A stretch of DNA of 64,000 nucleotides from Polyangiaceae bacterium. Its GTDB lineage: Bacteria > Myxococcota_A > Polyangia > Polyangiales > Polyangiaceae. A program made the translations under genes and the position numbers. The DNA lies in the NCBI GenBank assembly GCA_029941785.1, contig JAPYTK010000004.1:1450-65449 (forward strand), given 5' to 3'. The notes beneath the pieces are model-generated. The model worked only from the letters and a program-made list of their open reading frames with translations. It searched no databases and had not been told where the DNA came from. Shown in pieces: positions 2,714 to 50,063 of the stretch. Positions within the stretch are counted from its first letter, which is position 1. Each line of letters opens with the position of its first letter.

Positions 2714-2714
2714 C

Positions 2715-3803: not shown

Positions 3804-3849
3804 TCACGAACTGACGCGAATCACGTGGGCAAACGGGCCATTTGCAACG

Positions 3850-3876
3850 CTCAGCGCTGTCCCGTGAACCGCTGAG
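3850..3876 (+). terminator. Stem-loop after flhB (possible intrinsic terminator or attenuator)
   Basis: CTCAGCG (3850-3856) pairs with CGCTGAG (3870-3876) across a 13-nt loop. No U-tract follows. Confidence 0.3.
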
Positions 3877-3914
3877 GCGCGCGTCGAGCGCCCTTCTGAC
3901 CCCTCCGAGCAAGT

Positions 3915-3929
3915 TGGCACGAAAGCTGC
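3915..3929 (+). promoter_or_regulatory. Candidate sigma-54 (-24/-12) promoter upstream of flhA
   Basis: TGGCACGAAAGCTGC versus consensus TGGCACG-N4-TTGC. GG and GC are at the exact spacing with one mismatch in the -12 box. Lies 19 nt upstream of the annotated flhA ATG. Confidence 0.5.
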
Positions 3930-3947
3930 GTAAAACAGCTCGGATAG

Positions 3948-10875: not shown

Positions 10876-10950
10876 CAGCTGACATCGTATGATGCAAAAC
10901 TGGGGTAATTTGGCCCCAACCAGCCAAGCAGCGTTATCGTCTGTCTCCCG

Positions 10951-35454: not shown

Positions 35455-36048
35455 TCAGGCCTGCCCGAGGTCATCCTGGTTCGCGGTGCGAAGCGCGACG
35501 AGTTGCTCGACCTTGTCGATGGGATCTTGCCGCGGCTTGACGATGCGAGCGGTGCGATCGCCTCGCGCGATCTTGTCCTGCAGCAACAGCAGGCCATCGA
35601 TGACACCTTCGGGTCGTGGTGGGCATCCGGGGACATAGACGTCGACGGGAACGACCTTGTCGATACCGGCCAGGGTCGTGTAGTTGTCGTAAAACCCGCC
35701 GCACGATGCACACGTGCCAAAGGCCAAGACGTATTTGGGGTCCGCCATCTGGTCGTATACGCGTTTTAGAATGGGCGCTTGGCGTTGGGTAATCGTGCCC
35801 ACCACCCACAGCAGGTCGCTCTGGCGCGGAGAAAAACGAGGAGCTTCGGCCCCGAAACGCGCCATGTCGAAGCGCGGACTGGCCAAGGCCATGAACTCCA
35901 TCGCGCAACACGCGGTGACGAACGGGTACTGGAAAAGCGAGTACTTCCTCGCCCAATTGAGCAGATCCTCGAAACGGGTCGTCGCGAAGCCCTGCTCGCT
36001 TCCCTCGAAGACCAACGTTCGGGGCGAACTCGTCGGCGGTTGTGTCAT
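35455..36048 (-). CDS. nuoB: NADH-quinone oxidoreductase subunit B
   Basis: ACCAMEF, GTCASCGG and VPGCPPRPE cluster-N2 ligands. The ATG at 36048 overlaps the nuoA stop (ATGA), so the longer track ORF is rejected. Confidence 0.9.
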   Translation of the reverse strand: MTQPPTSSPRTLVFEGSEQGFATTRFEDLLNWARKYSLFQYPFVTACCAMEFMALASPRFDMARFGAEAPRFSPRQSDLLWVVGTITQRQAPILKRVYDQMADPKYVLAFGTCASCGGFYDNYTTLAGIDKVVPVDVYVPGCPPRPEGVIDGLLLLQDKIARGDRTARIVKPRQDPIDKVEQLVALRTANQDDLGQA

Positions 36049-36401
36049 TTCTCCCATTCGAGAGCTCCTTTGCGCCATGCGTAAATGAGCACGATGGCGA
36101 GCAACGCCAAGAACGAGGCCATGGTGAAAAAACCCGTATAACCGAGTTCGCGGAATTGAACGGCCCACGGATAGATCATGACCGCTTCGATGTCGAAGAC
36201 CACGAACAGCAGAGCGGTCAGGTAAAACTTGACGCTCGGCCGGATGTTGCGCGCACCATCGGAGGGATTGCCGCACTCGAAGGGCTCGGCCTTGGCGTCA
36301 TTCGGTACCTTGGGCCCAGCCCATGTCGTCGCGACGAACATGCCGCCAGCGATCAGGGCGGCCACGCCGAAAAGCATGAATAGAGGTAAATAGGTGGCCA
36401 T
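36045..36401 (-). CDS. nuoA: NADH-quinone oxidoreductase subunit A
   Basis: 118-aa three-TM protein with EPFECG and FDIEAV motifs. First gene of the cluster. Confidence 0.9.
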   Translation of the reverse strand: MATYLPLFMLFGVAALIAGGMFVATTWAGPKVPNDAKAEPFECGNPSDGARNIRPSVKFYLTALLFVVFDIEAVMIYPWAVQFRELGYTGFFTMASFLALLAIVLIYAWRKGALEWEK

Positions 36402-36414
36402 AGCCGTGGAGCTG

Positions 36415-36442
36415 ATTTCACATGGGTTTCAGAGGCTGTCAA
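36415..36442 (-). promoter_or_regulatory. Candidate sigma-70-type promoter of the nuo cluster
   Basis: Minus-strand TTGACA-N16-TGAAAT. The -10 element ends 13 nt before the nuoA ATG. Confidence 0.35.
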
Positions 36443-36484
36443 TCGCCGTGAAAACAGGGAGATGAACTGCCTAAACCCAAAAGC

Positions 36485-37623
36485 TCATGTCGTTTCGCCG
36501 ACCAGCTCACGCCACCGCTCGAGGGGCTCTCCGAGCTGCTCCTTCAACTGCTCTTGAAGCCCTTCTATGGCAGAATTCGACAACCCCGCGGCCTCCGCCT
36601 TACGAATCGTTCCAAGCGCGCCGAGATAACGCCCACGGCGCACGAGCGCTTGCGCCAAGGGAACCAGGATCTCTTCCAGTGACACCCCGAGCGCTTCAGC
36701 CCGGCGAAACGGAGCGATCGCTTCGCCGTGGCGCTCGGATTTCATGAACATGTGCCCCAGCCGGGCGAAGATGGGGCCACCGGCGGAGCCGTCCTGCGCG
36801 TATTGAATGGCAAGTCGCAGGACCTCTTCGCCCTGCATGTTGTCGCCAAGGCAGCTACAGGCCGTCCCGAGCAGACCAAGACCCTCGGCGATGCGCTGCC
36901 GCGCGCTGTCTGGAAGCATCTGCCCTTCCGGCGTTCGCCAATAGATCGACAAGGGCATCGGCCAACTGCCCAACAGCTTCGCAACTCCGTTCCAATCCCC
37001 CTCTTCGGCAGCCTTCTCCGCAGCGTCGACGTCGTTGAGATCGATGGCTGAACCGCCGCTCGACACCATCTCCGATGCGCGGTTCAGTTCGTCCTGAACG
37101 TGGTCCCGCATCTGCTTCCGAAAGGCAGAAATCGTGTACCTCGAAACATCGCCGTCGCAGGCGGCCAGGACAAACAGGCCGTCGTCGTCGATGACCAGTT
37201 CATCGAGCCGGTAGTTGAAGAGCGGAGCCAAGAGTAGCGTCTGCGAGCCCACGAGCGACTGCAGGGCATCGAGATCCGTCCCGCTGAGTTGGTCGACATC
37301 CACGCTGACCTCAGGGTCGCTCTCGAGGAGTCGCTCGACGAGGTGCGCGCGAAAGCTCGCGACGGTCATGCGCTCAGGCTCCTCGTCGCTGCCATCGCCC
37401 CCGATCACGAACTCGACCAGCGACTGATCGGGACTGAAGCGATCGATCATGAGCGAGCTGATGCGAGCATCAGCAATCAACGCGAAGGCAAAAAATGGCC
37501 GTCCGAGCACTTCGCACAGGGTGTGAAAACTGCTGATGCTCTCGCCAAAACGCTCGAACCAGCCGTCAGCGCGGATGGGTTCGAGTGAGATGCGGCGGTC
37601 CGAAGGCGTTGACCCGTTGGTCA
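36485..37623 (-). CDS. Hypothetical protein with TPR-like C-terminal region
   Basis: Long ORF with GC-rich third codon positions. The ATG at 37623 is preferred over the TTG at 37657. No family recognised. Confidence 0.5.
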
Positions 37624-37661
37624 TGGGGTCAGCGTTTGTACACCACAATGGCCACAAAGGT

Positions 37662-37701
37662 AAACGCCGAAGCGGTAGTAAGGCAAACGCCGAAGCGGTA
37701 G
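37662..37701. repeat. Exact 17-bp direct repeat (23-bp period) in a divergent promoter region
   Basis: AAACGCCGAAGCGGTAG occurs at 37662-37678 and at 37685-37701. Confidence 0.95.
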
Positions 37702-37740
37702 ACAGTTGCCGCGGGGCCCCGCCTCCGATACCGCTCCACT

Positions 37741-38997
37741 ATGGGAAGTTCGGACGATCGGCCGCCACGGCCTGTCGATTCACGGGGTGAGCGCGCCGTG
37801 GAATTGCCTCATTTTGACTTCCTTGCCGACTTTGCGACCGTGAGCGTGCAGGGCCGGGCGCGCAGCAGAAATCAAGACGTCATCCTCTGCGACCCGGAAA
37901 TATCGCTCTTCGGCGTCGCTGATGGCCTCGGAGGGCACGCTGCCGGCGAAGTTGCGGCTCGAATCGCGGTGGACACGGCCGCCGAGCACCTCGGCTCAGG
38001 GCAGATGGGAGAGACGGTGGGCCGGTTCGCCGCCGATCCCAATATCGAGAACCGACGCGCCGTACTGACCCTGCTCGAAGAGGCGGTACACGAGGCACAT
38101 CGAGCGGTCATCGCAGAGGGGACCGATGACCCCGCGAAACAGGACATGGGGACGACGCTGGATCTCGTTCTTCTCGTCCGCGACCGCGCCTTCGTCGCCC
38201 ATGTGGGAGATTCACGCGTGTATCTGCTGCGCCCGACAGTGACGCTTCAGCTGACCGACGACCACAAGCGTTACGACGGAATGCGCTCGTCGAGCGGGCG
38301 CACGCCACCGAGCAGCTTGGCCGGACCGCTCTCGAACAGCATCGGGCAGCGGAGCCAGCTCCGGGTCGACACGGTCTTCGCTGCCCTCGAAACGGGAGAC
38401 CGACTCATCGTCGGTTCGGACGGGGCCTTCTCCGACATCGAGAACGAAAACACCCTCGCCAAACCGACGGACACCCCCGGAGCCGACAACTGCTGTTCCT
38501 TGCTTCTCGACAACGCGCAAAACGCTGGTGGGCTGGACGATATCTCGCTCGTGGTGATCGACGTGGGCTCCGCGGTTGAGCACGCCGGCGGAAAAGCGAG
38601 CCACGCTGCCGAAGACGCAGCGGTCGCGGGGATGTCGCCGCTCCTTTGTGAGTTGAACGCGGCGCAACAGAAGGCTCTGCTCGCCTCGGCGATCGAGCTG
38701 GACTTGCCGAATGAGCGCACCCTTGCCCGCCGGATCACGGGCGATCGAGTCGCGTACATCATTCTCGAAGGTAGCGTCAAACTGCACAGCGGACGAACGC
38801 TCGGCCCCTCGGGCATGCTCCACGCCGAGTCCCTGGTCGATCTGACCCGCCGCGAGGCCCTCCCGGTCACTGCCGAACCGACGCGCCTACTACGCATTCG
38901 ACTCGACGACTTCGAGGAGGTCTGCGCGCTGGACCGCGACCTCGCAGCAAGGCTCTACGAGCGCCTTGCTCGCCACCTCGCCCGGCTCGCACCCTAG
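37741..38997 (+). CDS. PP2C-family Ser/Thr phosphatase fused to a cyclic-nucleotide-binding-like domain
   Basis: PP2C motifs FGVADGLGGHAAGEVA, GTTLDLVL, GDRLIVGSDG and DDISLVVI. The C-terminal ~120 aa show a cNMP-binding-like pattern. Confidence 0.8.
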   Translation: MGSSDDRPPRPVDSRGERAVELPHFDFLADFATVSVQGRARSRNQDVILCDPEISLFGVADGLGGHAAGEVAARIAVDTAAEHLGSGQMGETVGRFAADPNIENRRAVLTLLEEAVHEAHRAVIAEGTDDPAKQDMGTTLDLVLLVRDRAFVAHVGDSRVYLLRPTVTLQLTDDHKRYDGMRSSSGRTPPSSLAGPLSNSIGQRSQLRVDTVFAALETGDRLIVGSDGAFSDIENENTLAKPTDTPGADNCCSLLLDNAQNAGGLDDISLVVIDVGSAVEHAGGKASHAAEDAAVAGMSPLLCELNAAQQKALLASAIELDLPNERTLARRITGDRVAYIILEGSVKLHSGRTLGPSGMLHAESLVDLTRREALPVTAEPTRLLRIRLDDFEEVCALDRDLAARLYERLARHLARLAP

Positions 38998-39037: not shown

Positions 39038-39610
39038 CTACTTCAAGAGCTCGTCAACCTCGTTGGCGATCTCTTCCGCTTCGGTCGGGCTGTAACCAGA
39101 GTGCACGTGCCGAATGTTACCCGATTTGTCGATGACGTAGCTGGTCGGCATCTTCGGCGGCTTGTAGGCCTCGGCCGTCTTGTGCTCCTTGTCCCACACG
39201 ATCGGGAAAGTAACGTTGAGCTCTGTAGCAAACGCCTTGATATCGTCCTGCGAAACGTCTTCGGGATCGTCGACGCTCACGCCGATCACCACAACCGCTC
39301 CTGCATGCTTATCGACGAGTTCCTGATACATCGGAAACGACTTCTTGCAAGGCTCGCAGTAGGTCGCCCAAAAATCGACGATGATCACCTGTCCTGCCGC
39401 GTCCGCAACGGTCGCCGGTCCGTCACCGCCGACATACACGCCTGCAACCTCGGGCGCCTTCTTTCCGCCATCGCCAGCGTTATTTGAAGAATCCCCGCCC
39501 TCAGGGACATTGGCCGGTTTTGCAGGTCCGCAAGCGACCATCAAACCTAGGCTCAAGCCCATCAAACCAAAAACCGCCCTACGCGAAGTCATCGTCATTT
39601 GTCCGTCCAT
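39038..39610 (-). CDS. TlpA-like thiol:disulfide oxidoreductase lipoprotein (thioredoxin fold)
   Basis: Lipobox LGLMVAC, FWATYCEPCKKSFP (CXXC) and VIGVSVDD. The ATG at 39610 is chosen. Confidence 0.75.
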   Translation of the reverse strand: MDGQMTMTSRRAVFGLMGLSLGLMVACGPAKPANVPEGGDSSNNAGDGGKKAPEVAGVYVGGDGPATVADAAGQVIIVDFWATYCEPCKKSFPMYQELVDKHAGAVVVIGVSVDDPEDVSQDDIKAFATELNVTFPIVWDKEHKTAEAYKPPKMPTSYVIDKSGNIRHVHSGYSPTEAEEIANEVDELLK

Positions 39611-39691
39611 TTTCGTGGTTCCACCGAATCTGCCGCTGAGCTTAGTCGCCAAGCGTTCGACTTTGTAGCCCCGTAGCGATAAAAACACGAT

Positions 39692-40306
39692 GTGTCGTTC
39701 ATTGCCCTTCCGTATCGTCCGTCCGGGTTGATCTGCTGGCTCGTGACACCGCTGTTGCTCGGCGTCGCATGCCAACTCGAGAACGAAGTGGACTACGGCC
39801 CGCCCGGCGGCCTGCGAAATCAGGCGAGCCAGGAAGCATGCACGACGCCCACCAAGCCAGCGCAGTGTCCCCACTGGGCGAACGACGTCTTTCCCCTCTT
39901 CGAATCGAATTGCGCAGCAGCGACAGGGTGCCATGACAGCCAAGACAGCGGGGTACCGCCGCTGATCGTGAACGGTGATCCCTCCGCGAGTTATGGCGCG
40001 CTCGCGAGCTACGCGCCCAACGGTCGCCCGTACATCAAGGACGACGGCAAGAGCGACGAAGCTTACATTCTCTGCAATCTGCAGTACCGCGATGCGGACG
40101 ATAAGACCGTCGGTCCAGACCCATCACTCGACTCAGTGCTGATGCCCAAGGGGGCGGCTCTTTCGCTCGAAGACTGGACAACGATCGCCCATTGGGTCGC
40201 CTGTGGCATGAAGCAACAAGAAGGCACTGGCGGGGGCGGAGGCATGGGGCAAGCGGGCGCTGGTGGCGCTTCTGCGAACGGAAGTGGCGGGGCCGGCGGC
40301 ACGTAG
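39692..40306 (+). CDS. Lipoprotein with Planctomycete-cytochrome-c-like (PSCyt-type) region and Gly-rich tail
   Basis: Lipobox LLLGVAC. VFPLFESNCAAATGCHDS ... LMPKGAALSLEDWTTIAHWVACG resembles the PSCyt1 layout, but the motif is C-X5-CH rather than CXXCH. GTG start. Confidence 0.45.
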   Translation: MSFIALPYRPSGLICWLVTPLLLGVACQLENEVDYGPPGGLRNQASQEACTTPTKPAQCPHWANDVFPLFESNCAAATGCHDSQDSGVPPLIVNGDPSASYGALASYAPNGRPYIKDDGKSDEAYILCNLQYRDADDKTVGPDPSLDSVLMPKGAALSLEDWTTIAHWVACGMKQQEGTGGGGGMGQAGAGGASANGSGGAGGT

Positions 40307-40445
40307 GAATTTGTCCTACATTTACATACTTGGCGCGGTAAACCGTGGATCGAAAAGGATCCTTCAGGATCGGAAGCGATCCATGAACGCGGAAAATAGC
40401 GCCGCTATGTCCGCGTATGCAGGTAAACGCGAAACGATCTCGCGC

Positions 40446-40460
40446 TGGCCCGATTCATGC
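40446..40460 (+). promoter_or_regulatory. Candidate sigma-54 promoter upstream of the DUF4266 operon
   Basis: TGGCCCGATTCATGC: GG and GC at consensus spacing with two mismatches. 23 nt before the ATG at 40483. Confidence 0.3.
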
Positions 40461-40482
40461 TTTATCCTATGGCGTTGTGACG

Positions 40483-40719
40483 ATGACTCAAACAATCAAA
40501 CGCCTTGTGACCTCCCTCGCCTCCATCGGATTCGTCGTGGGGACACTCAGTATCGCAACGGGCTGCACGCCTGTCGCTGCCTACGAGCGAGCCAAGCTCG
40601 CGCACCCCACGATGGCCGCCAACGATTTGGCTGGTCCTGGCGAAGAGCATCTTCGTGCGGTGACGGAGGGAGCGATCGGAGGCAGCATCGGCGCCGGCAG
40701 TGGCTGCGGCTGCAACTAG
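40483..40719 (+). CDS. DUF4266-family small lipoprotein
   Basis: Lipobox SIATGC. AYERAKLAHPTM ... EGAIGGSIGAGSGCGCN* matches the recalled DUF4266 signature, which ends in GCGCN. Confidence 0.7.
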   Translation: MTQTIKRLVTSLASIGFVVGTLSIATGCTPVAAYERAKLAHPTMAANDLAGPGEEHLRAVTEGAIGGSIGAGSGCGCN

Positions 40720-40852
40720 GCAACGAATTTCCGAGAGCGAAATGAGCGGGCAGCTTGGCTGACCCGAATGACGCTCCACTGAACGCAGGTCATCGAACCA
40801 GAGAGAAGTTTCGCCGCTGCCACGGGGAGCGAATATAGTGGTGCGTGGCACC

Positions 40853-43003
40853 ATGACTCCACGTCTACTCCCGCTGTGCGTCTTCGCCCTCACTTCACTC
40901 ATGGCGGTGAGCGGCTGGGCTGACGATGGACCCAACGACGCCAGTGTGCGCGAACTCATTCAGTTCATCTTCAAAGCGGAAGTGTCGGAGGGAAAGCACG
41001 CCGATGCGCTGAGCAAACTGAAGGTCGCCGAGGCGGTATGCGAAGGGGACGCCTGTAGTCCCGAAGCGCGCGCCGATCTTTGGCTCGCGATCGGCCGTGT
41101 GCAGGTGCGGCTCGATCAAAATTACGACGCCGAAAAATCCTTCACTCGAGCCCTTCGAGCCTACCCCGGCGCGACGCTACCCGCAGACGCAAAACAGGGG
41201 TCCAGAGAGACCTTCTTGCGCGTGACGCAGCGTATCCAAAAACGCGAGAAGCAAGGCTGCCGCGGTAGCTACGATGGCGCGCGCCCGCCTCGTGGATGGC
41301 GAAAGGGTGAGGCCTATCATTGTTGGCGAAAGGCGACGCAAGCGAGGGGACGCCAAGCGTGGTCAAAGTGTGCACGAGATGCGCGCGCGTCGTATGACAT
41401 CGAACAGCGCGTGCAAACGCAGGCAGTGCTCGCGAGGTGCCTGGACAAGAGCAAGCGCTGGGGAGAAGCGATCGGGAACTACGACGAGATCGCGCGCAAA
41501 GGGCCGCGGCGGGGCCTCTACAGGCTCAGCCGTCAAACGCGAACCCGGTCCGCGCAGCTTCGGCGGATGATGCCGGCGATCGTGCTCGACGTACCAAAGA
41601 AGGTTCGCGACCTGGTCGTGAAGCTCGATGGTGCCACCCTGCCAAACGAGATCTTGGGCCAAGAGATAGCGCTTGATCCGGGCAGCCATCTCGTCGAAGC
41701 GCGAGGCCTTTCCGCCGACGGCGTGCAGCTGAGCTTCGAGCAAGGTGTCAGCCTTTCCCCACGCCGCACGCTGAACATCCTCATCAGTTTGGCCGCCGGG
41801 CCACCGAAATGGGCCTCTCGCTCGGAACTGCGCTGCTTATCCACAGCCCGAACAGCGGATGCTTTCAGCGCCTGCCTCGGACGACGAATTGCGCGCGCCG
41901 GCGACATCAACACCCGGATCAACTTCGAGGTATCCGGCTACCACGACGACATGAACGTTGACGTACTCACCCCCTCGGTGAGCGCTCGCGTCGAAAATGT
42001 CACGGCGGGCTGGGGGATCGGAGCGGCCTTCCTGGTCGACGTCGTCACCGCCGCCTCAACCGACATCGTGGCCACCGCCTCACCCGGCTTCCGTGAAGTC
42101 CGATGGGCGCCCGCCCTGAACGCTCACAAGCGCTTCGGCGACTTCGACGTCGGGCTGTCAGGCTCTTTCTCGCACGAGCCGGACTACCTCTCCGGCTCGA
42201 TCGGTGCACGCAGCACACTCGACCTTCGCCAGAAGACCATCACGCCGAGTTTGGGCTACCAGTTTTCCTACGATGTGAATGGCCGCGTGGGCACCAATTT
42301 TGAGGTGTTTTCCCACAAGATCAAGCGACATGCGGTCGATGTCGGCGTCGGGCTGGTACTGACCAAAGCGACCTTCGGCCAGCTCGCCGCCACGATGGTG
42401 TTCGAGAAGGGCGATAGCTCAAAGCCTTACCGACATATTCCCATCTTCGATCCCAGCAAGGTGGACCAGCCCCCGGCCGGACTTTCCATAGCCGATGTCA
42501 ACCGAGCACGCGAGCCCCTGCGCCCACTAGAGAAGCTCCCGACCTCACGTCAACGCTACGCCCTCGCCATGTCGATCGCCCATCGTTTCCGCAGCAGTAC
42601 GATTCGGGCCACCGAGCGGATCTACTTCGATAGCTGGGGAGTGAAGGCCAGCACCACGGACGCCCGATACATGATCGACGTCACCAAGCCCCTGCGACTC
42701 TGGCCACACCTCCGCCTCCATGCCCAAAGTGGCGCGAGCTTTTACAAACGAGCCTACCCGATCGCGCAGACGATCGATGGCACTCAAGATCTCATCGACA
42801 CGTACCGTGCGGGTGACCGCGAACTCGGTCCCTTGGTTGCCGTCACCCTTGGCGGTGGTGGGCGCTATGCTTTCGGCGAGCGGCAAAACTGGGGCGTGTT
42901 CCTGACCGGCGACGGCGTCTACACCCGCTTCCAGAATCATCTTTTCGTCACGAACCGCTGGGGGATCTTCGGCGCGCTCGGATTGGAGGTCGACCTCGAA
43001 TGA
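40853..43003 (+). CDS. TPR-like N-terminal domain fused to a DUF3570-type predicted outer-membrane beta-barrel
   Basis: Signal peptide LCVFALTSLMAVSGWA. The C-terminal ~400 aa show alternating beta-strand patterns (EVSGYHDDMNVDVLTPSVSARVENV..., VDVVTAASTDIVATASPG) as recalled for DUF3570. Located next to DUF4266. Confidence 0.6.
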   Translation: MTPRLLPLCVFALTSLMAVSGWADDGPNDASVRELIQFIFKAEVSEGKHADALSKLKVAEAVCEGDACSPEARADLWLAIGRVQVRLDQNYDAEKSFTRALRAYPGATLPADAKQGSRETFLRVTQRIQKREKQGCRGSYDGARPPRGWRKGEAYHCWRKATQARGRQAWSKCARDARASYDIEQRVQTQAVLARCLDKSKRWGEAIGNYDEIARKGPRRGLYRLSRQTRTRSAQLRRMMPAIVLDVPKKVRDLVVKLDGATLPNEILGQEIALDPGSHLVEARGLSADGVQLSFEQGVSLSPRRTLNILISLAAGPPKWASRSELRCLSTARTADAFSACLGRRIARAGDINTRINFEVSGYHDDMNVDVLTPSVSARVENVTAGWGIGAAFLVDVVTAASTDIVATASPGFREVRWAPALNAHKRFGDFDVGLSGSFSHEPDYLSGSIGARSTLDLRQKTITPSLGYQFSYDVNGRVGTNFEVFSHKIKRHAVDVGVGLVLTKATFGQLAATMVFEKGDSSKPYRHIPIFDPSKVDQPPAGLSIADVNRAREPLRPLEKLPTSRQRYALAMSIAHRFRSSTIRATERIYFDSWGVKASTTDARYMIDVTKPLRLWPHLRLHAQSGASFYKRAYPIAQTIDGTQDLIDTYRAGDRELGPLVAVTLGGGGRYAFGERQNWGVFLTGDGVYTRFQNHLFVTNRWGIFGALGLEVDLE

Positions 43004-43557
43004 CAGCCCGACTTTTCCTTCTCGTCCTGATCGCGCTCACGACCTGCAGCTGCGGTAGTCCCCTACGTGCCGACGCCATCGACTCACTCGGTGAGGAACA
43101 AGGCGAATTGCCGAGCGAGTTTCACCGACCGGGTCAGCCCTGCGTGCTGTGCCACTCGGCAGCCGGTGGGGTCGATCCCATCCTGAGCATCGGCGGCACC
43201 CTTTTCTTCGAGTCTACCGACGGTACCGAGGCTAAAGAGGCGCTTTTCCCCGCCGCGGGTTTCGCTGTCGTCGTCATCGACTCCGAAGGCCAGGAGCGTC
43301 AGATGCTGAGCAACGATTGCGGCAACTTCTACGCCCTCGAGAAAGACTTCAAGCCCGTGTACCCGCTGGCAACAGAGATTCGCAACGAATCGGGCGCGGT
43401 CACGAACAAGATGGTGAGCCGCATTGGACGATCGGGGTCGTGCGGTAGCTGCCACCTGGAGCAAAAGAGCCCACAGTCGCCGGGCGTGGTCCGCGTGGCG
43501 GACGCCAAACCGGACGACAAGCCGAATTGTCCCATTCCGAGGTTCTTGAAGCCATGA
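43000..43557 (+). CDS. Lipoprotein with two CXXCH heme-c motifs
   Basis: Lipobox LTTCSC, plus CVLCH and CGSCH. ATGA overlap with the upstream gene. Confidence 0.6.
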   Translation: MTARLFLLVLIALTTCSCGSPLRADAIDSLGEEQGELPSEFHRPGQPCVLCHSAAGGVDPILSIGGTLFFESTDGTEAKEALFPAAGFAVVVIDSEGQERQMLSNDCGNFYALEKDFKPVYPLATEIRNESGAVTNKMVSRIGRSGSCGSCHLEQKSPQSPGVVRVADAKPDDKPNCPIPRFLKP

Positions 43558-44057
43558 AACCACTGCACCTACCCCTCCTCGGTTTCCTTGGCCTCATCGC
43601 CAGCTGCGGCAATTTCGAAGGCTCCACGTTGATCGAGTGCCCGAGTGCGACACAATTCGCTGCTGTGTCACCGGTCTTGGAGAAACGCTGCGGCAGCCTC
43701 GATTGCCATGGCTCGATTGGACGCCCGCTGATCATCCAAGGACAGAACGGTCTTCGCTACATGGACAATCTCACCGGGGCGGGTGGCGGAGACAGCGGGG
43801 TGGCAGCGACGACGGATGCAGAGCGCGACGAGAATCGTCGTTCGGTCTGTGGCCTCGAGCCCGAGCGGACCGGCGAGGTCGTCCGGGGCGCTCTCGAGCC
43901 GCGCGATCTGATGATCCTGCGCAAGCCATTGCTCATCGAGCGGCACAAAGGCGGTCAGCTCCTGCTGAAGGGCGGCGCCGGCGATGCCTGTATCGAGAGC
44001 TGGCTACGGGGCGATGTCGACACAGCCGAATGTGCGCTCGCCATTTCGCTCCCCTAA
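43554..44057 (+). CDS. Lipoprotein with C-X4-CH motif
   Basis: Lipobox GLIASC and VLEKRCGSLDCHGS. ATGA overlap with the upstream gene. Confidence 0.5.
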   Translation: MKPLHLPLLGFLGLIASCGNFEGSTLIECPSATQFAAVSPVLEKRCGSLDCHGSIGRPLIIQGQNGLRYMDNLTGAGGGDSGVAATTDAERDENRRSVCGLEPERTGEVVRGALEPRDLMILRKPLLIERHKGGQLLLKGGAGDACIESWLRGDVDTAECALAISLP

Positions 44058-44101: not shown

Positions 44102-44569
44102 TCAAGGCTGCCGGTCGACGACAGAGGCGAGCAACTCCGCCTCGGCGCACAAGGTGCCGTCCACGCTCGCCTCGCCACGAAAACGCCACACGTTCGAGCG
44201 GTGGTGAAGCACCTCGACGTACAGATCCATCCGATCGCCTGGCACGACCGTGCGGCGAAACTTCGCCTTGTCGATCCCGAGGAAGAACATCAAGTTCGTG
44301 ATGGGGTCGAAAGGCTCGGAAGCGTAGGCCAAGATCCCACCGATCTGGGACAAGGCCTCGATGACCAGGACGCCTGGCATGATCGGCCGCTCAGGGAAAT
44401 GTCCCTGAAAGTAGGGCTCGTTGTAGCTCACACATTTGTGGCCGCGGATGAACTTGGATCGCGCGATCTCGGTGACCCGATCCACCATGACGAATGGAAA
44501 ACGATGGGGCAGCACCCCCAAGATCTGGTGGATCTCAAGCGAGCCAACGTCAGTGTTCAAGTTAGCCAT
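44102..44569 (-). CDS. fabZ: 3-hydroxyacyl-ACP dehydratase FabZ
   Basis: LPHRFPFVMVDRV and FQGHFPERPIMPGVLVIEAL. Confidence 0.9.
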   Translation of the reverse strand: MANLNTDVGSLEIHQILGVLPHRFPFVMVDRVTEIARSKFIRGHKCVSYNEPYFQGHFPERPIMPGVLVIEALSQIGGILAYASEPFDPITNLMFFLGIDKAKFRRTVVPGDRMDLYVEVLHHRSNVWRFRGEASVDGTLCAEAELLASVVDRQP

Positions 44570-44623
44570 GATTCATGAGCGGGTCGTACTCCACAAGACT
44601 AGACCGAAAACGAAGCGATCACA

Positions 44624-45193
44624 CTAGGGAGTGGCGCTCTTTTTGTCGCCGTCCCCCGAGTCCTTCTCAGACGCGTTTCGCCCGCCGGAGTTGTACATCT
44701 GCACGACCATGTCCGTCACGTCGAGATCGCCACGGGCGTAGGGTGCGACCGCCCGGTCGACGACCACATCGAAGCCACGCTTTCGAGCGACGCGCCGGAC
44801 GACCTTGACGAGCTTTTGACTGATCGGAGCGAGCAGCTGCTGCTGCTTTCGTTGCAGCAAGCGGTTAAACTCCACCGTCTTGGTCTGCACGTCGACCACG
44901 CGGCGCTGCCAGTGCTCGTAGCGTCGGGCGAAGGCCGACCGAGAGAGCACCTGGGCTTGCATCTTGAGTTGCTTTTGCTCGCGCTGCAGTTTGCCTTCCA
45001 CCCGCCGAAGTTCGGCCTTCTTGCGCGCGGTGTAATCGTTGAGAGACTTGGCGGCGCGTATGCCGTCTTCGGTCGCGAGCAAGGCGCGCTGCACATCGAT
45101 GACGCCGACCTTGACCTGTGCGCTCGCGCGAGACGCCAACAACAAGCAACCGCACGCGATGACGGCACCAAGCAGCCGAGCCAGACTCTTCAT
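44624..45193 (-). CDS. skp: OmpH/Skp-family periplasmic chaperone
   Basis: Signal peptide, VGVIDVQRALLATEDG, and a long Lys/Gln-rich coiled region. Positioned upstream of fabZ. Confidence 0.8.
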   Translation of the reverse strand: MKSLARLLGAVIACGCLLLASRASAQVKVGVIDVQRALLATEDGIRAAKSLNDYTARKKAELRRVEGKLQREQKQLKMQAQVLSRSAFARRYEHWQRRVVDVQTKTVEFNRLLQRKQQQLLAPISQKLVKVVRRVARKRGFDVVVDRAVAPYARGDLDVTDMVVQMYNSGGRNASEKDSGDGDKKSATP

Positions 45194-46905
45194 GAAATCA
45201 CTCCAAACTTCTTGCCGACCTTTTCGAATCCTTCGAGCGCGCGGTCGAGATGCTCACGCTCGTGGGTCGCCATATAACTCGTACGGAGCACCTGCTGTTT
45301 CGGCGGCACCCCGGGAGTGATGAAGGGATTGACGTAGATCGCGTGGTCATCGAGCAAGCTCTTCCACATCATGACGGTCTTCAGATCGTCGCGAATGTAA
45401 ATAGGAATGACGGCCGTGTCCGTGTTGCCGAGTTCAAATCCCATCCGACGCAATTCCTCGCGCATGTAGGTGAAGTTCTCGCGGAGCTTCTCTTGCCGCC
45501 ACGGCTCCGCCTCCATGATCTCGAGGGACTTCATCGCCGCCGCCACACAAGGTGGAGCTGCGCTTGCGGCGAATAGAAAACTGAAAGCGAAGTGCTGCAC
45601 GTAGTCGAGCACCTTGCGGTCGCCGACGAGCCAACCACCGATCGAGGCGAGCGATTTGGAGAAGGTGCCGCCGATCAGATCGACGTCGTCCACGCAATCG
45701 AACATCGCCGCGGTGCCCCGTCCCCCCGGGCCTATCACGCCGAGCGCGTGAGCGTCGTCCACCAGGATGCGGGCTTCGTGCTTCTTGACGACCTTGACGA
45801 GTTCGTCGAGCTTGGCGATTTCACCCTGCGCACTGAAGACGCCGTCGGTGATGACCAGCGCCCCCTCGGTCTCCTCCAGACCGCTCAGCGCCTTGTCGAG
45901 GGAGGCCGCGTCGTTGTGTCGATAACGGACCATGCGCGCGCCCGCTGCTTGCCCTAACCTCACGCCATCATAGATCGAGGCGTGCACATCCTTGTCGATG
46001 ACGGCCACGCTCTTCTTGTTGGAAAGCAGCGCGCTGATGGTTGCGAGGTTGACTTGATAACCGGTGGTGAAGACGAGGCCTGCCTCCTTGCCATGGTAGG
46101 CGGCAAGCTTCTCTTCGAGCTCGTTGTGCATCCGCATCGAGCCATTGACGAGCCGTGAGCCGGTCATGCTCGTGCCGTATTTTTCGATCGCATCGCGGGC
46201 TGCCTCACGAACGCGGGGATCGGTCGTCAGACCCAGGTAATTGTTCGACCCGAGCATGATGACCTTCTTGCCCTCAAGCATCGCTTCAGGACCGTTGTTT
46301 TGGTCGAGGGGCCGGAAGAAGGGATACACGCCCATCTTCCGAGCGTTGTCCGCAGCCATGAACTTCTGACACTTGTCGAAGACGTCCCGTCCCCCGGATC
46401 GCTGAATGGCCAGCCGCTGGCCCATCTGGCGCGCGAGTCGCTCCTCGGCAGCCTTGCGTCGCTCCGCAGCGGTGCGCTTTTTCTTCGGCTTCTCTTCGGC
46501 CGGTTCGCTTCGGTCCGTCTTGGCCTCGGTCGCAGCTTCTTTCGCCACGCTGCGCGTGGACTTACCGTTGCTGCTCTTCGCCTCGCCCGCAGCGCTCGGC
46601 CCCCGTTCGTCGACATCGACGAAGGTGGCGCCCAATTCATCGTCACTCTGCATCGCCGGATCGATGTGGGGCATGGCGTGGCCATTGATCAGTACGCTCC
46701 ACGCCTCCTTGGCGATCCCTGCCGCATCGCCAACGCGCTGTCGTGCTTCCATCACGCCCGTCGCAAACCGCATGACGCGATCGTTGCTCAACATGCGCAC
46801 CACCTTCGGCGAGCTGGCGAGGTTCTTTCCACGCTCGACCCAGTTCTTCATGGCGGAGCTATGGCCCGGACCATCGGGCGTTGTCAACTCGCCCGCCCGC
46901 GACAC
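45190..46905 (-). CDS. Serine-palmitoyltransferase-like alpha-oxoamine synthase with ~180-aa basic N-terminal extension
   Basis: GSNNYLGL, HASIYDG, the PLP-Lys motif GTFSKSLASIGG, and a C-terminal YVNPFITPGVPP...LRTSYMATH similar to Sphingomonas SPT as recalled. The stop overlaps the skp ATG (ATGA). Start uncertain (GTG 46905 or internal ATGs). Confidence 0.8.
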   Translation of the reverse strand: MSRAGELTTPDGPGHSSAMKNWVERGKNLASSPKVVRMLSNDRVMRFATGVMEARQRVGDAAGIAKEAWSVLINGHAMPHIDPAMQSDDELGATFVDVDERGPSAAGEAKSSNGKSTRSVAKEAATEAKTDRSEPAEEKPKKKRTAAERRKAAEERLARQMGQRLAIQRSGGRDVFDKCQKFMAADNARKMGVYPFFRPLDQNNGPEAMLEGKKVIMLGSNNYLGLTTDPRVREAARDAIEKYGTSMTGSRLVNGSMRMHNELEEKLAAYHGKEAGLVFTTGYQVNLATISALLSNKKSVAVIDKDVHASIYDGVRLGQAAGARMVRYRHNDAASLDKALSGLEETEGALVITDGVFSAQGEIAKLDELVKVVKKHEARILVDDAHALGVIGPGGRGTAAMFDCVDDVDLIGGTFSKSLASIGGWLVGDRKVLDYVQHFAFSFLFAASAAPPCVAAAMKSLEIMEAEPWRQEKLRENFTYMREELRRMGFELGNTDTAVIPIYIRDDLKTVMMWKSLLDDHAIYVNPFITPGVPPKQQVLRTSYMATHEREHLDRALEGFEKVGKKFGVIS

Positions 46906-46913
46906 GAAACATT

Positions 46914-46942
46914 TTGCGAGCCAAGTCGCGTTAAGGTAGAAT
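46914..46942 (+). promoter_or_regulatory. Candidate sigma-70-type promoter of the NtrC-like gene
   Basis: TTGCGA-N17-TAGAAT. The -10 element ends 13 nt before the ATG at 46956. Confidence 0.45.
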
Positions 46943-46955
46943 TTATTTCATAGCT

Positions 46956-48317
46956 ATGAAACGCGTCTTGGTCGTCGATGATGAGGAGAGTTTGCGGCTC
47001 GTCCTTCGTACCTTCTTGAAAAGAAAGGGATATCAGGTTGAACTCGCTGAAAATGGCGTGGCCGCGCTGGCCATGGTCGAGAGCTTTGGACCCGACTTCA
47101 TCATCACCGACGTCCGCATGCCCAAAATGGGGGGTCTCGATCTGCTCACGACACTCCGCGCCAAGGGCAACCTCGCCACCGTCATCGTGATGAGCGCCTA
47201 CGGCAACGTCGACCTCGCGATCGAGGCCATCAAGTCCGGCGCCTACGACTACGTCCAAAAGCCGTTCAAGAACGACGAAATCCTGCTCACCCTGCGCAAA
47301 GCGGAAGAGCGCGAGAGCCTGCGTCGAGAGAACCGTGTCCTACGCGAACAGATGGTCAAGGAGAACGTCTTCGAGAAGATGATCGCAAAAAGCGAAGCCA
47401 TGCTCGACATCTTCCGAACCATAGCGAAAGTCGCGGAGTTCAAGACGACTGCCCTGATCACCGGGGAGAGTGGTGTCGGCAAGGAACTGGTGGCGCTCGC
47501 CCTCCATCAACGCTCCGCACGGCGCGCTCACTCCTTCGTGGCGGTCAACTGCGGCGCGATCCCCGAGGCCTTGCTCGAGAGCGAACTGTTCGGTCACCAA
47601 CGAGGCGCCTTCACCGACGCCCATCGCGATCGGGCGGGGCTGTTCGAGCAAGCCGACCGAGGCACACTCTTCCTGGATGAAATCGGGGAGCTACCGCTCG
47701 GACTTCAGGTCAAGCTCTTGCGTGCACTTCAAGAAGACACCATTCGCCGGATCGGGGATTCACGAGACATCAAGGTGGACGTACGCATCGTCGCTGCGAC
47801 CCACCGAGATCTGACCGCGGAGGTCAAAGCCGGCCGCTTCCGCGAAGATCTTTTTTACCGCATCAACGTGCTGCACATCCACGTCCCGCCTCTGCGCGAG
47901 CGACGCGAAGACATCGGCCTACTCATCGATCACTTCCTCGAACGGAACAACGCGCGACTCGGGACGGACATCCACCGGATGCACCCCGACGTGAGACGCT
48001 TGCTCAACGAGTATGGCTGGCCTGGCAACGTGCGAGAGCTTGAGAACACGCTCGAGCGAGCCATGGTCCTGACCGACGGTGACGTCTTGCTCACCAGCGA
48101 TCTCCCAGAACGGATCCATCAGGCACGCGATCCCATTCGCCTGCACCTGGGAAGCGACGAATTGTCGATCAAGAAGACCTCGCGAATCATCGAAGAAGAA
48201 CTCATCCGGCGTGCGCTGCAGAAAACCGGCGGCAACCGTACCCACGCCGCGAAGTTTCTCGAGATCAGCCACCGCGCGCTGCTCTACAAGATCAAGGACT
48301 ACGAGATCGAGCTGTAG
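46956..48317 (+). CDS. NtrC-family sigma-54-dependent response regulator (REC-AAA+-HTH)
   Basis: REC (VLVVDDEE..., DFIITDVRMPKMGG), Walker A GESGVGKE, GAFTDA variant loop, and a Fis-type HTH. Confidence 0.9.
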   Translation: MKRVLVVDDEESLRLVLRTFLKRKGYQVELAENGVAALAMVESFGPDFIITDVRMPKMGGLDLLTTLRAKGNLATVIVMSAYGNVDLAIEAIKSGAYDYVQKPFKNDEILLTLRKAEERESLRRENRVLREQMVKENVFEKMIAKSEAMLDIFRTIAKVAEFKTTALITGESGVGKELVALALHQRSARRAHSFVAVNCGAIPEALLESELFGHQRGAFTDAHRDRAGLFEQADRGTLFLDEIGELPLGLQVKLLRALQEDTIRRIGDSRDIKVDVRIVAATHRDLTAEVKAGRFREDLFYRINVLHIHVPPLRERREDIGLLIDHFLERNNARLGTDIHRMHPDVRRLLNEYGWPGNVRELENTLERAMVLTDGDVLLTSDLPERIHQARDPIRLHLGSDELSIKKTSRIIEEELIRRALQKTGGNRTHAAKFLEISHRALLYKIKDYEIEL

Positions 48318-48320
48318 GGT

Positions 48321-49982
48321 CTAGAACTGAAAATACACGAAGGGGACGGCCTCGGCGCTCGCCGATTTGTGCAAAGCAAAAGCGATGAAACACAGAGCCA
48401 GTGCCTGCACGTAGGCTGGCGCGGCAATGAAGATCTCGCGCGCGCGGTCGTAGAGGCGGCGGGGGGACCACTGCAAGACCAAGGCTCCGAGGATGACGAG
48501 CAATACGTTCCGATGCAGGTTGGGTGTGTAGGTCGTCACCGTCAGCAGGCGTTCGTACATCGCCCAAGCCTTGTCCAGAGAAGCGGCCCTAAACATCGTG
48601 AAGGTCAGGGCGGCGAAAGTGAAGTTCGCCGCAACACACAACACCGCCATCGGCCCTCGCAAGCTCTTCCCAGCCAGCGCGACGAGAATCGCCACGACCC
48701 AGCCCCCGATCACGAGCGACAGCACCATCAAGGACAAGCCCGGTCGACCCATCGCCAGCGCGATCCGCCATACGAGCAGCATGCCCGCCCCCGAGACGAT
48801 CAAGGCCCCCGCGACCGTCTTGGTCTTCAGGCCGTTCTTCAGCTCCTCCTGGAACCAATGCGACACACTGAGCGCGAGGCCTTGCACGCAGCCGAAAACG
48901 AAATAAGTCCAGGCCGCGCCATGCCACACCCCGCAGATCAACATGGTCATGAAGATGTTGAAGTACTTGCGAAGCCGCCCCTTACGACCACCACCAAGTG
49001 GAATGTAGACGTAGTCGCGTAGCCAAGTGGAGAGCGAGATGTGCCAACGGCGCCAGAACTCCACCACGTTGGTCGACTTGAAGGGCGCATCGAAGTTGAT
49101 CTTGAAACGATAGCCGAGCAGCAAGGCCGAACCGATCGCGATGTCGCTGTAGCCAGCAAAGTCACAGTAGACTTGCACCGTGTAGCCATACATCGCGGCC
49201 ATGGCTTCGATCGAAGAATAACTGGTCGGCTCGGCGAACACCCGATCGACGAAGTTGACGGCGATGTAGTCTCCAATCACGACCTTCTTGAAGAGGCCCG
49301 CCGCGATGAGGAACAAGCCCTCCCCACCGGTCTGTGACGTGAGTCGAGTCTTGCGCTCGAGATGGGGCAGCAGATCGCGGCCGCGAATGATGGGCCCCGC
49401 CACCAGGTGGGGAAAGAAGGAGATGTAGGTCAGGTAGTTGAGGTAGCTTCGGCAAGCGGGGATCTCTCGCCGGTACACGTCGACCACATAACTGAGCGAC
49501 ATGAAGCAAAAGAAGGAGATGCCAATGGGCAGCTCGACTCGGAAGTGAATGTCAGGAAGCTTCACGCCGAGAGCGGCATCCGCCAACCAGATGACCGTGT
49601 CGGCGCCCCAATTCCAGTACTTGAAGAAGACGAGGATCCCGACGTTGACCAACACGGTGGCGATCAGCATGGCTTTGCGCCGCTTGGGGTCGTCGATGCG
49701 GTCGAGCCAGACACCGAGGTAGAAATCGATACTCGTCGCGACGTAGAGCAAGGGCACGAACTTCACGCTCTGCAGCACTTCTCGCCAGAACACTGCGCCC
49801 TCGGCGGCCAGCAAGCGATCAAAGCCGACGAAGGTCCAGCCCGCGTAAAACACGTAGCTCGACACGAGCAGAAAGCCGAGCCGGAGACGGCGCCACGGAG
49901 CCAGCAGCCACGACGCGGTAAAGACGATGGCGAAGAAGTAGGCGTAGCTGATCGTGTTGAAGAGCAAGCTGTTGCGGTTCAT
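48321..49982 (-). CDS. MBOAT-family membrane O-acyltransferase (AlgI/PatA/DltB-like)
   Basis: FWRRWHISLSTWLRDYVYIPLGG, a catalytic His region (CGVWHGAAW), and more than 10 TM helices. The ATG at 49982 is preferred. Confidence 0.85.
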   Translation of the reverse strand: MNRNSLLFNTISYAYFFAIVFTASWLLAPWRRLRLGFLLVSSYVFYAGWTFVGFDRLLAAEGAVFWREVLQSVKFVPLLYVATSIDFYLGVWLDRIDDPKRRKAMLIATVLVNVGILVFFKYWNWGADTVIWLADAALGVKLPDIHFRVELPIGISFFCFMSLSYVVDVYRREIPACRSYLNYLTYISFFPHLVAGPIIRGRDLLPHLERKTRLTSQTGGEGLFLIAAGLFKKVVIGDYIAVNFVDRVFAEPTSYSSIEAMAAMYGYTVQVYCDFAGYSDIAIGSALLLGYRFKINFDAPFKSTNVVEFWRRWHISLSTWLRDYVYIPLGGGRKGRLRKYFNIFMTMLICGVWHGAAWTYFVFGCVQGLALSVSHWFQEELKNGLKTKTVAGALIVSGAGMLLVWRIALAMGRPGLSLMVLSLVIGGWVVAILVALAGKSLRGPMAVLCVAANFTFAALTFTMFRAASLDKAWAMYERLLTVTTYTPNLHRNVLLVILGALVLQWSPRRLYDRAREIFIAAPAYVQALALCFIAFALHKSASAEAVPFVYFQF

Positions 49983-50063
49983 AGCAGACCCGCCGACCGC
50001 GGGCCTAGTCGCTGCGAGCGCTGGGAGGTGGCCCACGAACAACACAGCGGCTATCCTCCGCAG

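Follow-up and report, generated by a model that had tools for sequence, protein, structure and literature searches.

The best-described relatives of the system reported here are gene clusters linked to ApbE. It was found experimentally that ApbE flavinylates the DUF3570 protein of Chlorobium luteolum at two [S/T]GA[S/T] serines, and hundreds of clusters were described that combine ApbE and DUF3570 with a thioredoxin-like protein and DUF4266, often together with DsbD (eLife 2021, PMC8238504). In the same work, a conserved C-terminal CXC was noted in DUF4266, 25 clusters carried the VIT1 iron transporter, and the physiological role of the TlpA/DUF4266/DUF3570 system was called uncertain (PMC8238504). 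No Polyangia names appear in the text-file part of the supplement of that study, and a limited search of the DUF3570 and DUF4266 literature brought up no form that is partnered by haem proteins or that lacks the motif glycine. Here we describe a six-gene envelope module at positions 39038 to 44057 of a 64,000-nucleotide stretch of DNA (the window) from a bacterium of the Polyangiaceae (assembly GCA_029941785.1, contig JAPYTK010000004.1, positions 1,450 to 65,449). The window derives from a metagenome-assembled genome of the Polyangiaceae, and a protein encoded in it has an identical copy in GCA_029936035.1.

The locus is a real, conserved six-gene envelope module and a Polyangia-specific variant of the TlpA/DUF4266/DUF3570 extracytoplasmic redox system. 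The reading that we favour, tentatively and with slightly less than even confidence, is that its products form a porin-cytochrome-like conduit across the outer membrane that is fed by a thiol relay. An earlier note on this DNA, made from the letters alone, had likewise proposed an outer-membrane redox system, which is still the best reading that we can infer. Its statement that the core components all lack a known function is out of date, since DUF3570 is an experimentally established substrate of ApbE flavinylation (PMC8238504). The six genes, named P1 to P6 in the following, are:

39038..39610, minus strand: P1, a TlpA/ResA-like thioredoxin-fold lipoprotein with lipobox LMVAC and active site WATYCEPC (C-x-P-C)
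39692..40306, plus strand: P2, a lipoprotein with lipobox LGVAC and the motif CAAATGCH, which is C74-X5-C80-H81 (nucleotides 39911-39934)
40483..40719, plus strand: P3, a small DUF4266 lipoprotein with lipobox IATGC and the C-terminal tail GSGCGCN
40853..43003, plus strand: P4, a DUF3570 outer-membrane protein with a Sec signal peptide
43000..43557, plus strand: P5, a lipoprotein with lipobox TCSC (Cys18) and the motifs C48-VL-C51-H52 (nucleotides 43141-43155) and C148-GS-C151-H152 (nucleotides 43441-43455)
43554..44057, plus strand: P6, a lipoprotein with lipobox IASC and the C-X4-CH motif R-C46-GSLD-C51-H52-G (nucleotides 43689-43709)

All that had been read directly from the letters, namely the six open reading frames (ORFs), the lipoboxes and signal peptide, the ATGA overlaps, the GSGCGCN end, the CVLCH and CGSCH motifs, the two C-X4/5-CH motifs and the divergent CEPC protein, was found in its place. 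The overlaps join the P4 stop to the P5 start at 43000 and the P5 stop to the P6 start at 43554, and the two lipoprotein genes are accordingly read as translationally coupled to the barrel gene. Identical overlaps of 4 nucleotides are present in the gene calls of the homologous loci L001, L002, L085, L086 and L087, while L003 has an overlap at the P5/P6 junction only and L084 has one of 1 nucleotide and one of 4. The P2 and TlpA genes are divergent, with about 80 nucleotides between them. The P1 start is ambiguous, lying at 39610 or at 39592 (MTSRR...), and the longer start, MTSRRAVFGLMGLSLGLMVAC, is more likely the correct one. The public P1 gene call of 167 amino acids starts at 39541, at a Met inside the lipobox (MVAC), and thereby loses the signal peptide.

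Family membership was established by profile hidden Markov model (HMM) searches, in which the DUF4266, DUF3570 and Redoxin assignments made in the earlier note all came out above the Pfam cut-offs. P1 matches AhpC-TSA with 78.5 bits (cut-off 26, E 5e-22) and Redoxin with 64 bits (E 2e-17); it falls below the NCBIfam equivalog cut-offs for ResA (85 bits vs 170) and TlpA (41.5 vs 230), so that its membership holds at the family level only. The C-x-P-C site, as W-x3-C-x-P-C, is kept in all 43 P1 orthologues. P3 belongs to DUF4266 (PF14086; 42.5 bits vs a cut-off of 27, E 1e-10), and its GCGCN C-terminus is found in all 55-57 Polyangia orthologues and in 25 of the 26 canonical ones described below, the exception being probably truncated. 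P4 matches DUF3570 (PF12094) over residues 404-674 with 75.6 bits (cut-off 25, E 4.5e-21), and PF12094 is a precomputed assignment on all P4 homologues. These number 137 for the 721-residue P4, nearly all with 700-770 amino acids, and the named ones are from Polyangiaceae or Myxococcota.

To describe the neighbourhood of these barrels, loci were gathered from one genome per GTDB species, giving 80 loci, and 85 loci in all were used for the counts, with the six families mapped onto all of their ORFs by iterated HMMs. Named loci all belong to Polyangia (Polyangium, Chondromyces, Minicystis, Byssovorax and Labilithrix), and the remaining ones bear no finer label than Myxococcota, Myxococcales or Deltaproteobacteria. 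Of the 85 loci, 84 have P5 and 82 have P6, followed by P2 (71), DUF4266 (55) and TlpA (43); the conservation of the gene neighbourhood is therefore clear, with P5 and P6 as obligate partners of the barrel. No further family is co-conserved, none being found in more than 29 of the 85 loci. Together, these counts indicate that the invariant core, an autonomous unit as judged from gene content, is the barrel with P5 and P6, usually with P2. The identical six-gene order recurs around three homologues, and its recurrence in Polyangium aurulentum (L001) amid unrelated flanking genes places it beyond chance.

Three types of module can be distinguished: the full set, as in the window; P2-barrel-P5-P6 modules without TlpA and DUF4266, which retain all P2, P5 and P6 motifs; and short barrels of 380-430 amino acids, without a TPR extension, that are still followed by P5 and P6. 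Several genomes carry two or three paralogous modules, as in Minicystis rosea (L049, L061) and SMAG_U10783 (L023, L045, L059). At L085, a pair of ECF sigma factor and FecR anti-sigma genes stands directly upstream of a short-form module (2440-6329 and 9344-10897), and a VIT1 iron transporter lies 4 kb upstream. In the same locus, DUF4266 is displaced to about 3 kb downstream of the barrel, and P6 is followed by a 517-residue protein with a weak second DUF3570 match.

The barrel itself was modelled with AlphaFold2 on an alignment of 98 sequences, with a mean predicted local distance difference test (pLDDT) score of 91 and 16 strands, which bears out the beta-barrel expected for the 40853-43003 product. 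The parts of this model, with residues numbered on the 721-residue ORF that begins at GTG 40838, are:

nucleotides 40937-41569, plus strand: residues 34-244, TPR-like, all-alpha helices that follow the signal peptide (AlphaFold2)
nucleotides 41576-41782, plus strand: residues 247-315, a beta-sandwich (AlphaFold2)
residues 328-353, plus strand: two helices (AlphaFold2)
nucleotides 41906-42997, plus strand: residues 357-720, the 16-strand barrel (AlphaFold2)
nucleotides 42038..42082, plus strand: the double cofactor-attachment loop D401-VVTAAS-T-D409-IVATAS415, in register with the canonical double flavinylation site

The attachment segment runs from the last part of strand 3 into the loop that leads to strand 4, and the long loops between strands 9-10 and 13-14 are highly conserved. 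The TPR, which by sequence is sub-threshold in Pfam, had been described as an extra domain fused to the barrel; this holds for the window P4 but it is not general, given the short barrels mentioned above. Six cysteines of the TPR and linker (C68-x4-C73, C178, C201, C333 and C346; window 40838-41900) vary little or not at all among the long forms. From their pattern they may form three disulfides, and they are candidate targets of the TlpA/DUF4266 relay.

A Foldseek search with the whole P4 model retrieved generic outer-membrane barrels, with BcsC as the top match, and no MtrB-type protein was among the top 50. One could thus take the protein for a polymer or protein export channel of the BcsC/PgaA/PelB type, in which the lipoproteins would be accessory and have no part in electron transfer, since periplasmic TPR and a 16-strand barrel are the architecture that P4 and the BcsC/PgaA exporters have in common. 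The identities of 7-10% and the low TM-scores, however, speak for a generic barrel likeness, and P4 has neither sequence similarity to these exporters nor polysaccharide genes around it, synthase and glycosyltransferase genes being absent among the co-conserved families. Moreover, P4 clearly belongs to DUF3570, for which a role as flavoprotein substrate has been demonstrated, and the short forms without TPR keep the same partners. An export channel is therefore considered highly improbable.

The partners of the barrel are the part of the module in which haem signatures are found. P5 is very probably a dihaem cytochrome c, judging from the residues that it conserves. Across 76 non-redundant sequences there is no variation in the lipobox Cys, in either CXXCH motif, in His42 or in Met138, a set of residues that fits the requirement of two c-type haems with His/His and His/Met ligation, and two CXXCH motifs are found in 81 of 84 orthologues. 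Weak and consistent matches to Cytochrome_C7 (60), Paired_CXXCH_1 (58), Cytochrome_CBB3 (47) and CarboxypepD_reg (22) were obtained over the 76 members, and the CXXCH motifs flank a beta-sandwich that resembles CarboxypepD_reg. The motif regions are disordered in the AlphaFold model of P5, as expected without haem. A sequence search of the PDB with the P5 profile gave motif-level matches only. As a word-indexed protein search with P5 gave 7 relatives only, the orthologues were drawn from the loci.

P2 probably binds a single haem, as a class-I-like cytochrome c whose haem motif is expanded. CX4CH is present in 67 of its 71 orthologues and CX5CH in 3, the window included, and M151-P152 and W168..C171-G172, near the C-terminus, are invariant, with a Gly-rich tail. 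In the gene position of P2, locus L084 has a canonical cytochrome-like domain with CVSCH...MPP...WV..GM, and hhalign places the P2 profile on this domain with 92.8% probability (E 4e-7), CX4CH aligning with CXXCH across a two-residue gap and Met-Pro with MPP. The earlier note had suggested a PSCyt-like layout; the PSCyt1 family itself is matched weakly and by only 2 of 42 P2 members (E 0.009). In the PDB, cytochrome c-552 was matched by the P2 profile around MPP..W, but not significantly. The protein at L084 (5902-6804, plus strand) is a 300-residue lipoprotein that unites the CVSCH class-I-like domain with a dihaem domain of the P5 kind (CISCH...CNGCH). The next gene downstream encodes a short DUF3570 barrel, and the fusion makes a Rosetta-stone link between P2-type and P5-type proteins.

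P6 is possibly a monohaem CX4CH cytochrome, its motif being of a form that is accepted as a less common haem-binding motif (PMC11492766). CX4CH is kept in 80 of 82 orthologues, in 71 of them as RCGxxDCHG, and His131 (within ERHKGG) and C146 are invariant. By hhalign, P6 aligns to P2 across the motif with 73% probability (E 3e-5) and to a canonical CXXCH domain with 35%; no Pfam or PDB sequence match was found for P6, and no relative was detectable besides P2. In comparison with PSCyt1 and class I cytochromes c of the c-552 type, P2, and more weakly P6, have a similar layout of a hydrophobic helix, Cys..Cys-His-Gly and, towards the C-terminus, Met-Pro and W..G. The two proteins differ from these cytochromes in the expansion of the motif to CX4CH (CX5CH in the window P2), in having no member at the Pfam threshold and, for P6, in a His that replaces Met-Pro. 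On these signatures, P5, P2 and P6 would all be c-type cytochromes, with four haems in total.

The Cys and His residues of the three lipoproteins might instead form disulfides or bind Cu, Fe or Zn, in a metal-handling or envelope thiol-homeostasis system in which TlpA and DUF4266 would keep the cysteines reduced. Such a role without haem would suit the lack of CXXCH in P2 and P6, the lack of any cytochrome family at threshold and the many further conserved cysteines of the lipoproteins, and the TlpA family includes copper-chaperone reductases. It has to contend with the two invariant CXXCH motifs of P5 and their conserved distal His and Met, and with the homology between P2 and a cytochrome domain of the canonical CXXCH/MPP kind. 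All the motifs, moreover, are retained in modules with neither TlpA nor DUF4266, whereas canonical clusters that have both TlpA and DUF4266 contain no P5 and a single P6-like gene. A role without haem is thus regarded as improbable.

A barrel gene that adjoins genes for exported or lipoprotein cytochromes is a feature of the porin-cytochrome complexes, such as MtrAB(C), PioAB/MtoAB and the OmbB-OmaB-OmcB of Geobacter, and this adjacency has been used as the search criterion for porin-cytochrome clusters (PMC5566968). In the present module, an AlphaFold barrel is followed by overlapping P5 and P6 genes, and the adjacency is kept in 82-84 of 85 loci. Cyc2, a fused porin-cytochrome, offers a second likeness, in which few haems are paired with a porin domain. 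However, no sequence relationship of the module to the porin-cytochrome complexes or to Cyc2 was detected, and the wire of 8-10 or more haems, the 20-26 strands and the MtrB/PioB/OmbB homology of the complexes are all absent from it. Instead, the module has at most two haem motifs per protein, four over three small proteins, two of them not CXXCH, together with a cofactor loop in the barrel itself and a thiol-disulfide input through TlpA and DUF4266. On these likenesses and differences, it is to be considered analogous to the porin-cytochrome complexes and Cyc2, and not a member of either.

The cofactor loop leads back to flavin. The canonical site, to whose two serines ApbE attaches FMN, reads D-x-x-S-G-A-S-x-D-x-x-S-G-A-S, and at both sites of the window the [S/T]-G-A-[S/T] flavinylation motif is absent: the loop has TAAS and ATAS, in which both glycines are replaced while Asp and Ser are kept. 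As a third protein search, meant to reach remote short DUF3570 forms, gave only proteins without the Gly, canonical forms were fetched by a DNA pattern. A metagenome scan for two adjacent D-x-x-[ST]-G-A-[ST] motifs, written as a degenerate pattern, gave 80 matches, of which 26 encode short DUF3570. These 26 canonical proteins carry VDT[VI]SGASVDAVSGAS in the exact register of the window loop, which therefore can be recognized as a double flavinylation site with its glycines replaced. The replacement is seen in 114 close homologues, in 84 loci, bar L083, in nearly all of the best 150 of 971 relatives and in 120 further short forms. In about 99% of the clade the Gly is absent, the variants being TAAS/ATAS or SAAS/STAS, and motif 2 often also lacks [S/T] at position -3. 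Asp, Ala and Ser of the motifs are kept in both clades, 37 barrel residues are common to the canonical proteins and those without the Gly, among them the two Asp/Ser pairs as well as several Arg, Tyr and Asp, and one relative (P0207) has SGAS and SAAS motifs.

These observations bear on whether haem has replaced flavin altogether, with an unflavinylated barrel, a loop that is a relic or docking site, and three cytochrome lipoproteins that supply all the redox centres. The loss of both ApbE-motif glycines in essentially every member of the clade, together with the frequent lack of [S/T] at -3 in motif 2, would be explained in this way. So would the gene content, as P5 and P6 occur in 84 and 82 of the 85 Gly-less loci and P5 in none of the 26 SGAS-type loci, and as the gene calls for 7-10 kb around the modules of L001-L003 and L084-L086 include no ApbE gene (PF02424). 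Yet Ser and Asp are invariant at 33-50% identity and belong to the core residues common to the flavinylated clade, which is unlike a relic. In the single instance on record, a Gly-to-Ala change in the ApbE motif still left about 50% of the flavinylation (ApbE review, PMC12052999), so that flavin loss is not established by the replacement. ApbE is likewise missing from the list of 25 neighbour families of the 26 canonical SGAS-type loci, and the mixed loci L134 (with P6) and L083 (with P5 and P6) carry SGA[ST]-type motifs. Full replacement of flavin by haem is accordingly held to be quite unlikely, and the suggestion of the earlier note that haem lipoproteins sit where the flavin transferase would be expected goes further than the invariant Asp and Ser, and the equal lack of ApbE among the families listed for the canonical loci, allow.

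The invariance of the serines argues that the attachment loop is still in use, and flavin may well be retained alongside haem. A flavin-haem hybrid, in which a distant ApbE tolerates or prefers Ala or Thr and the chain is lengthened by the cytochromes, is one form of the conduit that we favour, and by itself it is somewhat unlikely. The invariant Asp and Ser of both motifs, the barrel core common to the canonical clade, the tolerance of Gly-to-Ala at about half activity and the apparent rule of a distant ApbE in the 26 canonical loci are in its favour, as is the presence of cytochromes beside canonical SGAS barrels. It is weakened by the ApbE literature consulted, in which no substrate lacks the Gly, and by motif 2, A-T-A-S, which deviates at two positions.

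Cytochromes beside canonical barrels were found in two forms. At L134, a metagenome contig, a barrel with SGAT/SGAT motifs is preceded by a P6-like CX4CH lipoprotein (636-1103, minus strand), and a divergent 760-residue multihaem cytochrome with about ten CXXCH motifs (1139-3421, plus strand) is also encoded. This locus looks like an intermediate between flavin-type and haem-partnered systems. In eight canonical TlpA-DUF4266-DUF3570 loci, a lipoprotein of about 900 amino acids is encoded upstream; its middle domain is HZS_alpha (PF18582), as at L137 (1352-4096, plus strand) and in L110, L117, L118, L150 and L155, and two CXXCH motifs (CNGCH, CINCH) are present in the six that were checked. L083 is the mixed case already named, with SGA[ST]-type motifs, P5 and P6. 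Since canonical barrels also adjoin cytochromes, as in L134 and the HZS_alpha dihaem loci, it appears that the association of DUF3570 barrels with cytochromes extends over more than one lineage, which favours a mixed chain of flavin and haem over simple replacement.

In other respects, the comparison with the DsbD-linked clusters of ApbE, DUF3570, thioredoxin-like protein and DUF4266 (PMC8238504) shows the same three families, the same GCGCN end, the same C-x-P-C and the same register of the double attachment loop, with the 37 barrel residues in common. TlpA and DUF4266 of the canonical loci are of the same subfamilies as those of the window (E about 1e-30 and 1e-14), although the Polyangia TlpA gene is divergent and the canonical order, in 26 loci, is TlpA, DUF4266 and DUF3570 in one direction. 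Unlike the canonical clusters, the window clade lacks the motif glycines, has P5 and P6 as obligate and P2 as usual partners, and in many members has an N-terminal extension of about 330 amino acids with TPR and a beta-sandwich. Some of the Polyangia paralogues are without TlpA and DUF4266, and no ApbE or DsbD gene is nearby. P5 was found in 0 of 26 canonical loci and a P6-like gene in one, L134. The commonest canonical neighbours are Ysc84, OMP_b-brl, SH3 and the lipoprotein of about 900 amino acids, with Ysc84 as the commonest downstream gene (11 loci). The absence of a nearby ApbE was considered as a mark of the Polyangia variant and rejected, ApbE being equally unlisted beside the 26 canonical loci.

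In the conduit across the outer membrane that we favour, thiols would bring reducing equivalents to the periplasm, passing from cytoplasmic thioredoxin through a DsbD or CcdA encoded elsewhere to the TlpA-like lipoprotein. From there they would go to the flexible C-terminal Cys-Gly-Cys tail of DUF4266, acting as a shuttle; Erv2-type sulfhydryl oxidases have a shuttle CGC tail, which the DUF4266 tail resembles. From the tail, electrons would reach the haem lipoproteins and the cofactors that sit inside the barrel or next to it. These would pass the electrons on one at a time, either through the outer membrane or along it, to an acceptor that is external or lies in this membrane. The paralogous modules without TlpA and DUF4266 would be fed via the P2 cytochrome. 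Iron is the leading candidate for the acceptor, on the thin support of VIT1 in the published clusters and of the ECF sigma/FecR pair and VIT1 at L085.

Several points weigh against this conduit. Haem in P2, P5 and P6 is read from sequence signatures: P2 and P6 match no Pfam or NCBIfam family and have no canonical CXXCH, and P5 stays below the Pfam thresholds (Paired_CXXCH_1 15.8 bits vs 20.6; Cytochrome_C7 15.2 vs 24.8). The AlphaFold model of P5, made on an 8-sequence alignment, is poor (pLDDT 56), with only the central beta-sandwich confident, and its Foldseek matches were generic Ig-like folds, which are uninformative. Four putative haems and 16 strands are far below the known porin-cytochrome conduits. 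No gene for DsbD/CcdA, ApbE or haem lyase was found within about 10 kb of the module, and the hints of iron come from few loci. Finally, all loci are from one bacterial class, and locus counts taken within it are not independent events.

A bolder proposal would make the module the representative of a new conduit class, with a 16-strand barrel carrying serine-linked cofactors, small CXXCH and CX4CH cytochromes and a thiol-disulfide drive (DsbD, TlpA and the DUF4266 tail), by which two-electron thiol chemistry would be turned into one-electron transfer to an extracellular acceptor. In such a conduit, TAAS and ATAS might be the target of a transferase whose specificity has changed, or might hold another kind of cofactor. 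We hold this proposal to be rather doubtful.

As for the regulation of the module, a sigma-54-like element had been proposed to precede the operon, and it is present as follows:

40446-40461, plus strand: sigma-54-like -24/-12 element TGGCCC-N5-ATGCT, ending 22 nucleotides before the DUF4266 start codon

The element, TGGCCCGATTCATGC(T), has two mismatches to TGGCAC-N5-TTGCW. Taken within the window alone, it is at chance level, with 32 matches at two or fewer mismatches vs 28 +/- 6 expected. In the relatives, a GG-N10-GC element (TGGC[AC]C-N5-xTGC[AT]) stands upstream of DUF4266 in 21 of 57 loci vs about 1.3 expected, and the promoter is credible because of this conservation across loci and not from the window. 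A sigma-54 promoter thus is a probable driver of the DUF4266-DUF3570-P5-P6 operon. A scan for sigma-70 promoters found nothing. In the relatives, the element often ends merely 10-50 nucleotides before the start codon. Should the element serve as a promoter, transcription would begin about 10 nucleotides ahead of the DUF4266 ATG, with almost no leader or Shine-Dalgarno sequence (window 40462-40483); a similarly short spacing from element to start is seen in L042, L051 and L054. A gene for an NtrC-type regulator, at 46956..48317, is syntenic in 19 of 85 loci, and it would be no more than a guess to name it as the cognate activator.

The genes that flank the module vary from locus to locus. Among the ten commonest neighbour clusters, five have Pfam names, none of them redox (FabA-like, kinase, NtrC-type regulator, aminotransferase and DUF7107), and the other five, including the top one, have no Pfam match; OmpH also recurs as a neighbour in the gene calls. 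Upstream (35455-38997), nuoB and nuoA (35455-36401, minus strand), a conserved 390-residue protein without a Pfam family (36485-37657, minus strand) and a PP2C phosphatase that is greatly extended at its C-terminus (37741-38997, plus strand) are encoded, and all of these are neighbours likewise in L002 and L003. The downstream region (44102-50066) is outside the module and syntenic in L002 and L086. It encodes, on the minus strand, a FabZ-like protein (44102-44569), OmpH/Skp (44624-45193) and a 571-residue class I/II aminotransferase with a long N-terminal extension (45190-46905), then the sigma-54-dependent response regulator (46956-48317, plus strand) and an MBOAT acyltransferase (48321-50066, minus strand). 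These downstream genes look like a neighbourhood of lipid and outer-membrane biogenesis.

Even if the conduit proves wrong, the module is still among the most conserved uncharacterised envelope operons in Polyangia. The large clade in which Asp and Ser are kept and Gly is absent provides a natural experiment on the recognition motif of ApbE, and the carriers Polyangium aurulentum, P. fumosum, P. jinanense, Chondromyces apiculatus and Minicystis rosea are cultivable. By its obligate partners with haem signatures, a barrel of unknown function becomes a porin-cytochrome candidate. If the conduit is true, extracellular electron transfer would be extended to a group that is not known for it, by means of a thiol-to-haem or thiol-to-flavin relay that crosses the outer membrane. 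And if a conduit class of this kind exists, then predatory myxobacteria of aerobic life in soil, with as many as three modules in one genome, would possess an unrecognised form of extracellular electron transfer or of reductive iron acquisition.

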